From the NCBI GenBank assembly GCA_018304615.1, contig JAGVVV010000008.1, forward strand, positions 25,741 through 89,740: a stretch of DNA of 64,000 nucleotides, in the 5' to 3' direction. Under the pieces are notes generated by a model, which saw nothing but the letters and a program-made list of their open reading frames with translations, had not been told where the DNA came from and did not search any database. The stretch is from Candidatus Aenigmatarchaeota archaeon. Its GTDB lineage: Archaea; Aenigmatarchaeota; Aenigmatarchaeia; CG10238-14; SCSR01. Position numbers and translations under genes: made by a program. Below are positions 20,433 through 21,336 of this stretch, piece by piece (position 1 is the first letter of the stretch; each line of letters begins with the position of its first letter).

Positions 20433-20587
20433 CGCTAAAATTTAAAAGGGCACAAATTTAAACTATTATCAACAAGTTATTACAAGGTGATTCTCAAAGA
20501 ATGAGAAAATTATTTGCATTGGTGATAGGCAATGCCTGAAATGATGCCTGAATATAATCTAGTGGCTAAAGACCACATGATGTTCAA

Positions 20588-21336
20588 ATGGGCTACGACA
20601 GGACAAATTTGCCTAGTTAATAACTAGCAAAGTCCATTTGCTGTATCGTACCCAGTCATAAAGCTGGTATGAGGCAAAATTTAGTCCTGATGGCCGCCTG
20701 TTCCAAGTAGAGTATGCTAAGGAAGCAGTGAAGAAAGGATCGACTTGTTTGGGAATAGTTTTCAAAGATGGAGTATTGCTCGCGACAATCAGACCGTCGA
20801 CTGCACTGATGGTGCCTGAATCTCTGGAGAAGATTTTCCAGATTGACGACCATCTTGGAGCAGTGGCTTCTGGATATCTCGCTGATGCAAGAGTTCTTGC
20901 AAACCAGTCTAGGGTGAAGGCGCAAGTCCACAAAATCACTTATGAAGAGCCAATAGATGTCTGGGGTGCGGCAAAAGTTTTGGGAGACAGGATGCAGATT
21001 TCGACAATTTATGCAGGCTTAAGGCCGTTCGGAGTTTCGTTCTTGATTGGTGGAGTAGATAGAACAGGTCCTCATCTAGTTGAAACAGATCCTTCTGGAA
21101 TGCTTTACGAATGGAAGGCGAATGCTCTCGGAAGAGGAGCTCCAGTAGCAAACAAGATATTCAAGCAGAGATGGAAAGATGGCCTGAGCGAGAAAGAGGC
21201 CGTGGATATTGCTCTAGATGTAATCCAGAAGACTGAAAAAGAGAAAAAGGCAAACGCTATTGACGTTGCTATAATAACAAAAGACCTGAAATTCAGAAAA
21301 TTGAGGGAAGAGGAAATCAAGAAGGCTTTAAAGTGA
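20588..21336 (+). CDS. psmA: proteasome subunit alpha, N-terminal coding region interrupted by a ~65-71-nt intervening sequence
   Basis: ATG 20588 encodes MGYDR (gate motif) then stops (taa 20618, taa 20621); conserved ..[25 protein letters not shown].. continues in another frame from 20662; the rest (to 21336) is an ordinary alpha subunit. Confidence 0.75.
20599..20689 (+). repeat. imperfect 16-bp inverted repeat (stem 20599-20614 / 20672-20689, two 1-nt bulges) enclosing a 57-nt loop across the psmA exon junction region
   Basis: CAGGACAAATTTGCCT pairs with AGGCAAAATTTAGTCCTG; loop contains the in-frame stops. Confidence 0.6.

Follow-up and report, generated by a model that had tools for sequence, protein, structure and literature searches.

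A known counterpart of the gene considered here is the cbf5 pre-messenger RNA of Crenarchaeota, which harbors an intron of the bulge-helix-bulge (BHB) type, of 16-44 base pairs (bp), that is cut by the transfer RNA (tRNA)-splicing endonuclease (Watanabe 2002; Yokobori 2009; PMC2738675). This intron is too small to hold a nuclease open reading frame (ORF), has been gained or lost by lineage, and its BHB splicing has been demonstrated experimentally (PMC2738675). A further BHB intron lies in the 5' untranslated region (UTR) of Haloferax volcanii HVO_1309, at whose description in 2020 cbf5 was the only other example known in a messenger RNA (mRNA; PMC7714728). Archaeal ribosomal RNA (rRNA) BHB introns encode LAGLIDADG homing endonucleases (mentioned in PMC2738675). 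In the collaborative homing of cyanophage S-PM2, the gene for the free-standing endonuclease F-CphI neighbors psbA, which contains an intron; the nuclease targets the insertion site of this intron and mobilizes it, while the intron prevents self-cleavage and so protects the host allele (PMC6083498). Here we examine psmA, the gene for the proteasome alpha subunit, in 64,000 nucleotides (nt) of contig JAGVVV010000008.1 from an archaeon of the DPANN phylum Aenigmarchaeota, a placement borne out by the homologs of its PsmA. This stretch, hereafter the window, most likely contains a functional psmA with three BHB mini-introns within its first ~150 nt.

Three interruptions in psmA of the window

An original prediction, made from the letters of the window, had taken ATG 20588 as the start of psmA and MGYDR as the conserved start of the protein. 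This ATG does read MGYDRTNLPS before running into TAA TAA at 20618-20623 and, also as predicted, the second conserved block is read in a frame that opens at 20662, after the stop at 20659-20661, with GTG 20728 as its first in-frame start (giving a 202-amino-acid (aa) ORF). MGYDR, however, is not the protein start in this lineage. The closest PsmA proteins (235 aa, 87-93% identity) have an N-terminus that lies upstream of it, and the window encodes the matching MPEMMPEY in the third frame, at 20532-20555, separated from MGYDR by 32 nt. Thus, psmA is interrupted at least twice, and its true start falls outside the interval that had been considered: the first codon is at 20532 instead of 20588, and there are three interruptions instead of one. 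Deleting 20556-87, 20607-37 and 20645-78 yields a 708-nt ORF whose 235-aa product is colinear with the intact proteins of relatives (P0001-P0005) and identical to four of these over residues 1-40.

Each of the three deleted segments (I1, I2 and I3; Table 1) has a canonical BHB core with a 4-bp central helix and 3-nt bulges on opposite strands, the 3' bulge of I1 being possibly 4 nt long. With carets marking the cuts, I1 has the central helix GAAU 20550-53 / GUUC 20582-85 with bulges AU^A and AA^A, an inner helix of AUC/GAU plus GUGG/CCAC, and an outer helix, offset by one base, of GCCU 20546-49 / GGGC 20590-93. In I2, which interrupts an Ile codon between its first and second bases and contains the TAA TAA mentioned above, the central helix is GGAC 20601-04 / GUCC 20632-35, the bulges are AA^A and AU^U, and the inner helix is UUUGC(C)UAG / CUAGCAAA. 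I3 interrupts a Val codon between its second and third bases, with the central helix UGCU 20639-42 / GGCA 20673-76, bulges GU^A and AA^A, and the inner helix UCGUACC(C)AG / CUGGUAUGA. The inner helices adjoin the core directly, with three, five and seven continuous pairs in I1, I2 and I3, respectively, and then more. Each BHB is the minimum-free-energy (MFE) fold of its own ~50-nt segment, and a scanner blind to reading frame detected I1 and I2 unaided.

Between I2 and I3 lies a micro-exon, which contributes the remainder of the Ile codon, an Ala codon and two bases of the Val codon, and which is located wholly within the BHB cores: U638 is the third base of the 3' bulge of I2, 20639-42 form one strand of the I3 central helix, and G643 and U644 open the 5' bulge of I3.

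Table 1 Features of the psmA region and of the control tRNA in the window (introns and junctions are predicted; carets mark the joined ends)
Feature	Positions	Strand	Remarks
psmA exon 1	20532-20555	+	MPEMMPEY; identical to residues 1-8 in intact relatives P0001-P0003 and P0005
Intron I1	20556-20587	+	32 nt; found by the frame-blind scanner; solver restores ...PEYMGYDR
psmA exon 2	20588-20606	+	19 nt; MGYDRT and the first base of the Ile codon
Intron I2	20607-20637	+	31 nt; found blind by the scanner; part of the unique solver solution
psmA micro-exon 3	20638-20644	+	7 nt, UUGCUGU; between I2 and I3
Intron I3	20645-20678	+	34 nt; part of the unique solver solution
psmA exon 4	20679-21336	+	last Val base to stop; Pfam Proteasome domain; colinear with relatives
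Predicted spliced junctions			GAATAT^ATGGGC; GGACAA^TTGCTGT; TTGCTGT^ATTTAGTCC
Long helix of the original prediction	20599-20689	+	alternative fold, incompatible with the BHBs of I2 and I3; once I2 is lost, the outer part (20599-20606 / 20681-20689) also serves as exon-exon helix of I3
Upstream ORF	20501-20539 (region 20484-20539)	+	MRKLFALVIGNA then stop; 12-13 codons; own Shine-Dalgarno sequence
LAGLIDADG gene	19491-20432	+	free-standing, homing-endonuclease-like; 313 aa, two motifs, C-terminal helix-turn-helix (HTH) region; Pfam LAGLIDADG_3, E = 2e-10
tRNA-Arg(UCU)	44930-45019	-	14-nt BHB intron (44998-45011) at the noncanonical position 8/9

The original prediction had attributed the break to one relaxed BHB intron of 65, 68 or 71 nt, starting downstream of ATG 20588 and bracketed by an inverted repeat. 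Its arithmetic is sound (20674 - 20588 = 86, so that deletion of any of these lengths restores the frame), and the 16-bp helix formed by 20599-20614 and 20672-20689, with two 1-nt bulges and a 57-nt loop, is indeed the predicted MFE fold (-39.6 kcal/mol, z = -4.5, with none of 200 shuffles as stable). As a splicing structure, the repeat fares poorly: it competes with the BHBs of I2 and I3, and its duplex energy is -19.8 kcal/mol here versus -2.5 to -4.6 kcal/mol in three other loci with two adjacent introns, in which the helix is absent. The long helix is thus specific to the window and not part of a conserved splicing structure. Hand fitting gave no BHB for any single 65- or 71-nt deletion, and a solver could place a 4-bp helix with 3-nt bulges on no single in-frame deletion, so the misfit to a canonical BHB that had been reported holds for one intron and disappears with two canonical introns of 31 and 34 nt; the only solution for the 65-nt excess is I2 plus I3. 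Alignment to PsmA sequences points the same way. Removal of I2 and I3 gives the exact conserved peptide, whereas the favored 71-nt deletion gives YDRAKFSPDG, which is two residues short and replaces TIAV, a tetrapeptide that no single deletion yields, that is identical in every close relative read and that is TMAM in L041 and L090 (L numbers denote psmA loci). Moreover, the two halves occur as lone introns elsewhere (I2 in L043 and L070, I3 in L005), and one intron downstream of 20588 would ignore the upstream MPEMMPEY exon. We therefore regard a single intron as highly improbable, while the class of explanation, an archaeal mRNA intron of BHB type, stands.

Equivalent predicted introns in relatives

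Distant homologs are annotated with an N-terminal truncation at the same spot (VKFSPDG..., MFSPDG..., MSPDG...), and their DNA has small inserts at neighboring codons, each with a perfect 4-bp helix and 3-nt bulges. When a single genome was surveyed for each species, GYDR and PDG were exactly 30 nt apart at the DNA level in 30 of 30 archaea outside the Aenigmarchaeota and in most Aenigmarchaeota. This distance was 30-65 nt longer in nine species representatives, in the window and in L005-L008. Counting the whole of the first ~90 nt of psmA, 28-65 extra nt are present in 12 of 43 Aenigmarchaeota species representatives, in addition to the window and L005-L008; equivalent inserts are thus found in many psmA loci of the phylum, as the original prediction had proposed to check.

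To parse these loci, the solver searched for deletions equal to the excess in which a helix of 4 bp lies between bulges of 3 nt, each bulge is cut after its second base, and the inner helix has 3 bp or more. A solution restoring a peptide of the GYDRT[IM]A[VM] type exists in all 14 loci interrupted between GYDR and PDG. Without mismatches, solutions were obtained in 9 of 14 loci compared with 3.3% of shuffles; with one mismatch allowed, the values are 14 of 14 and 28%. The leader site harbors a 28-35-nt BHB intron in nine loci, each restoring ...PEYMGYDR. Together, the solver defines 27 introns (window and loci L005-L070) at eight positions, with a ninth position parsed by hand, and three loci found via the endonuclease discussed below have two or three psmA introns each (hand-parsed). 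The same position as I1, or a neighboring one, is occupied in eight other loci and also in L089-L091; that of I2 is occupied in seven other loci; and L005 carries an intron at the I3 position with the same bulges. Micro-exons recur as well, with lengths of 8-9 nt in L008, L045, L046 and L090. The ninth position is that of a hand-parsed intron in L091 (3679-3720; CAG GU^A...AU^A GAG, central helix CCAG/CUGG), which interrupts the codons for QVEYA, so that the insertion hot spot reaches as far as codon 27.

Across the 27 solver-defined introns, the BHB central helix is kept by compensatory changes. At the Ile site (between codon bases 1 and 2), helix position 2 is G-C in four introns, A-U in three and C-G in one; the exon base is the synonymous third position of an Arg codon, and the intron base changes to match. 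Helix position 3 is A-U or G-C in the leader Y^M subset, and G-C or A-U at the Phe site (again between codon bases 1 and 2). The inner helices have unrelated sequences between loci, yet are always paired. Intron lengths fall into the three classes modulo 3 as 7, 13 and 7, with no preference for multiples of three, and 26 of 27 introns contain a stop in the frame of the upstream exon (14.9 expected from shuffles), with stops in all three frames in 10 of 27 (2.6 expected). With this enrichment, read-through of unspliced mRNA is impossible. Many of these stops come via a palindromic hairpin of the type UAGUUA...UAACUA; a search for this motif elsewhere in the window found none.

The unspliced frame is broken three times, which would be expected if three small insertions, never excised, had turned psmA into a pseudogene, and a second psmA might lie outside the 64-kb window. 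Against this, psmA is under strong purifying selection: dN/dS is 0.03 relative to the intron-free L001, with dS of about 1.5 and nearly saturated synonymous sites, and the remaining 219 codons are undamaged. Equivalent interruptions, each removable to give the exact conserved peptide, are found in another 20 loci of diverged lineages, and exon and intron bases covary, whereas insertions in a dead gene would not retain BHB geometry. A pseudogene is therefore very unlikely, and the recent disruption allowed for in the original prediction is disfavored by the same comparison.

Comparative data also speak against translational recoding, that is, a ribosome bypassing the gaps or shifting frame over them in the style of T4 gene 60. 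An AGU (20615-17) does precede UAA UAA and recurs at 20683-85, resembling a take-off and landing pair. A hop between these, however, would yield YDRTNLPSPDG (within the peptide YDRTNLPSPDGR), losing IAVF by placing NLPS where IAVFS belongs. Nor does the first gap offer a matching codon pair or a stop after UAU, recoding would have to occur three times within 50 codons, and the 27 introns share no bypass signals but do share BHB geometry. Recoding is extremely unlikely.

Errors of assembly or sequencing were also considered, given that the DNA comes from a metagenome-assembled genome. Five contigs of independent assemblies from ENA and Logan (SRR3989338, SRR3989342, ERZ4903072, ERZ27254763 and ERZ27254754) are identical over 20500-20760, and about 20 unrelated assemblies have equivalent structures, which leaves an artefact with a negligible probability. 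Self-splicing group I or II introns were rejected, as the inserts are only 31-34 nt long and a ribozyme core needs hundreds of nucleotides; Rfam models matched only tRNAs in the window.

A tRNA as internal control

One of these Rfam matches was a partial tRNA (44939-44997, minus strand) that ARAGORN had missed. It belongs to a tRNA-Arg(UCU) with a BHB intron whose central helix is CCUU/GAGG and whose bulges, GU^A and AA^A, are identical to those of I3. Excision of the 14 nt according to the same rule restores a tRNA-Arg(UCU) that is complete, has U8 and A9 where they belong and is now detected by ARAGORN. The genome thus relies on BHB splicing at a noncanonical position, and the cut rule also applies to a substrate independent of psmA. 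Published geometry leads to the same rule: canonical pre-tRNA has anticodon bases 34 and 35 within the central helix, and its bulge consists of bases 36 and 37 plus the first intron base, which places the cut after the second bulge base (PMC4090602). Just upstream of this tRNA is a partial duplicate of its 5' acceptor strand (AUGCCCCUGAUGG).

Proposed splicing and points against it

The motifs, the exact restoration of the protein, their recurrence and covariation, the purifying selection and the operation of the same rule in the tRNA make it very likely that the psmA interruptions are RNA-level BHB introns; one cut rule gives the exact conserved protein here and works for the 27 introns and for tRNA-Arg. 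In the pathway that we propose, each intron in the pre-mRNA would fold into a 4-bp helix between two 3-nt bulges, EndA, the archaeal tRNA-splicing endonuclease, would cut after the second base of each bulge, and an RtcB-type ligase would join the exons, giving an mRNA for the normal 235-aa PsmA. I2 would likely be excised first and I3 second, because the outer pairs of I2 (A600-U639 and C599-G640) overlap the I3 central helix and the outer helix of I3 needs I2 to be gone. With both BHBs enforced, GGGCUA 20590-95 is predicted to pair with UAGUCC 20682-87, an interaction that could hold the flanking exons together.

Several observations weigh against this interpretation. Loose BHB geometry is common by chance, with about 2,400 matches per 64 kb (per strand) and equal numbers in shuffles; what counts is thus not the bare motif but its position, the exact restoration of the protein and the comparison among loci. 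Outer helices are weak: that of I1 needs a 4-nt 3' bulge or a U·U mismatch, that of I2 has 2 bp, and I3 has none (20599-20606 / 20681-20689) until I2 is removed. In full-length context the MFE structure uses the long helix (-47.9 kcal/mol versus -40.3 kcal/mol with three BHBs enforced), and after removal of I2 the BHB conformer of I3 has -18.6 kcal/mol versus a minimum of -29.9 kcal/mol. A central-helix mismatch is required in 5 of 14 GYDR-PDG loci and in 2 of 9 leader-site loci. Retention of the 7-nt exon through two cleavages is unexplained by the model, and neither EndA nor RtcB was found among the 26 ORFs of the 64-kb window that were scanned against Pfam. Finally, it is from sequence that we infer splicing in vivo, as well as the acting enzymes and the order of removal.

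A scan of the window for strict BHBs that would merge two open frames gave hundreds of uninformative matches and was dropped.

A LAGLIDADG gene linked to interrupted psmA

Immediately upstream of psmA, the window harbors a LAGLIDADG gene inserted between Pop5 and psmA, a slot that measures 73 nt in intron-free relatives. Among the species representatives, an unbiased set in this respect, 6 of the 12 loci with introns have a homolog 5' of psmA, compared with 0 of the 31 without (Fisher p about 1.5e-4); L005 and L007 have one too. Another three members of the family (45-69% identity) likewise occupy this slot, each beside an interrupted psmA, and the family is found almost exclusively between Pop5 and psmA, and only beside intron-bearing psmA. 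The two catalytic motifs are kept throughout a set of 13 proteins with 33-69% identity: G55-D56-G57 and L150-F151-D152-D153 do not vary, and E154 is nearly invariant. The family comprises two subfamilies, with the HTH either C-terminal or as an N-terminal insertion. Endonuclease identity does not track PsmA identity (rho 0.12), and comparison of the LAGLIDADG protein with solved structures gave no significant sequence match.

The 5' UTR of psmA in the window is of the cassette type seen at other endonuclease-bearing loci, unlike that of its closest relatives. It contains a short upstream ORF (Table 1) whose stop lies 5 nt past the psmA AUG, overlapping psmA codons 2-3, and a hairpin (GCAUUG 20516-21 / CAAUGC 20530-35) that encloses the psmA Shine-Dalgarno sequence and AUG. 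ORF and hairpin are kept in L005, L041, L090 and L091, and in the endonuclease-less L045, but not in the closest relatives. The upstream ORF is probably the right-hand end of the endonuclease cassette, and together with the hairpin it may confer translational coupling or regulation. L045, which retains the cassette 5' UTR and ORF, fits loss of the endonuclease gene after invasion. A search of the endonuclease-less intron-bearing loci for remnants found none at E below 0.1, and a psmA recombination breakpoint, the sign of a co-conversion tract, was sought in a 5' coding region too conserved to resolve one; it is only in the 5' UTR that the cassette type is clear.

It is possible, although we hold this idea only tentatively and consider it rather unlikely, that the LAGLIDADG gene and the mini-introns form a mobile system, also in conflict with the host, amounting to collaborative homing for BHB introns. 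By analogy with known homing systems, the endonuclease would cut near-invariant DNA in intron-free psmA alleles, and spliceable BHB mini-introns would destroy the recognition site while leaving the protein unchanged, thus shielding the host allele and being carried along by gene conversion. Repeated rounds involving endonuclease variants with shifted specificity might then produce nine positions, up to three introns and micro-exons. If true, homing would be a DNA-level entry route for BHB introns into protein-coding genes.

A LAGLIDADG ORF within one large BHB intron was considered and rejected: there are 4-17 candidates per locus, about the number expected by chance, and none is consistent between loci. 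Two other loci have additional LAGLIDADG sequences. In L090, a second LAGLIDADG_3 gene (1-763; 384 aa, cut by the locus end) lies ~1.7 kb 5' of the psmA-linked one. In L023, the homolog (1369-2353) matches as two pieces in different frames, which could reflect a frameshift, decay or an intron of its own.

Gene context and other features of the window

A Pfam scan places psmA among genes for Rpp30, an ACT-domain protein, Pop5, SBDS, Rrp4, Rrp41 and Rrp42 (in the order Rpp30, ACT-domain protein, Pop5, psmA, SBDS, Rrp4, Rrp41, Rrp42), which is the archaeal exosome/proteasome superoperon. Elsewhere, at 33397-35034 (plus strand), there is a run of small overlapping ORFs that occupy different frames, just 5' of a Trp/Tyr-tRNA synthetase gene, and one ORF encodes an Mrr-type restriction endonuclease domain; this run may be a degraded or interrupted gene. 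Considered as an intron-split gene, the ORFs at 33397-36220 were rejected, having only Mrr-like and Trp/Tyr-tRNA synthetase domains and no sign of an intron. Four paralogous sulfatase genes (780-2264 and 3706-5076 on the minus strand, 7591-8940 and 9129-10553 on the plus strand) are interspersed with two tRNA-Pro genes, an arrangement that is unusual for a small DPANN genome.

Comparison with known systems

In public records, the psmA of the window is represented only by products of 195, 202 and 212 aa (the last being NCBI MBS3055177.1). All of these are missing the N-terminal helix as well as the gate residues (YDR), and a collection of 15 billion sequences does not contain the 235-aa product. 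Gene callers truncate such genes; a BHB-aware check at conserved N-termini would correct the calls and would probably bring further split genes of DPANN genomes to light. Hardly any spliced protein-coding genes are known from archaea, and psmA is an essential housekeeping gene with three predicted introns. Two questions become testable: how frequent spliced archaeal protein genes are, and how BHB introns spread.

Outside archaea, HAC1/XBP1 mRNA is spliced by a protein-only endonuclease at small stem-loops, followed by RtcB-type ligation and with a change of frame. That system differs from psmA in being eukaryotic, in using IRE1 rather than EndA, and in having a single regulated intron.

The mechanism proposed for psmA is of a known kind, because BHB splicing of archaeal mRNA is known for cbf5 and one Haloferax 5' UTR, the only cases documented in the literature that we searched; reports of psmA introns or of mRNA introns in Aenigmarchaeota were not found there. 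New are the gene and the phylum, three introns in one coding region, the micro-exons, the nine positions and the linked LAGLIDADG gene.

With regard to this linked gene, F-CphI and psbA resemble the present arrangement in that a free-standing homing-endonuclease gene lies beside an intron-bearing conserved gene. The phage system combines a group I intron with an Endo VII-type nuclease, whereas here BHB introns and a LAGLIDADG gene lie on an archaeal chromosome; the likeness is one of analogy only. In archaeal rRNA, BHB introns are likewise paired with LAGLIDADG nucleases, but with the nuclease ORF inside the intron, whereas at psmA it is outside, upstream of the gene.

The noncanonical and multi-intron tRNAs of archaea (PMC4090602) share with psmA the BHB core, the cut rule, the small size and the presence of several introns in a short transcript. 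By contrast, the psmA introns are hosted by the coding region of an mRNA, where the reading frame dictates precision and no tRNA body keeps the exons together. HVO_1309 is, like psmA in our prediction, an mRNA substrate of EndA; it differs in having a single intron located in the UTR, with an uninterrupted coding sequence. Like psmA, cbf5 has a short BHB-type intron inside a protein-coding gene. There, however, a single intron occupies one position in one gene, in Desulfurococcales and Sulfolobales, whereas psmA, a proteasome gene of Aenigmarchaeota whose splicing is deduced from sequence, can carry as many as three introns at once, drawn from nine positions in a stretch of about 90 nt. Some of its exons are micro-exons that measure only 7-9 nt, and the gene for an endonuclease is linked to it.

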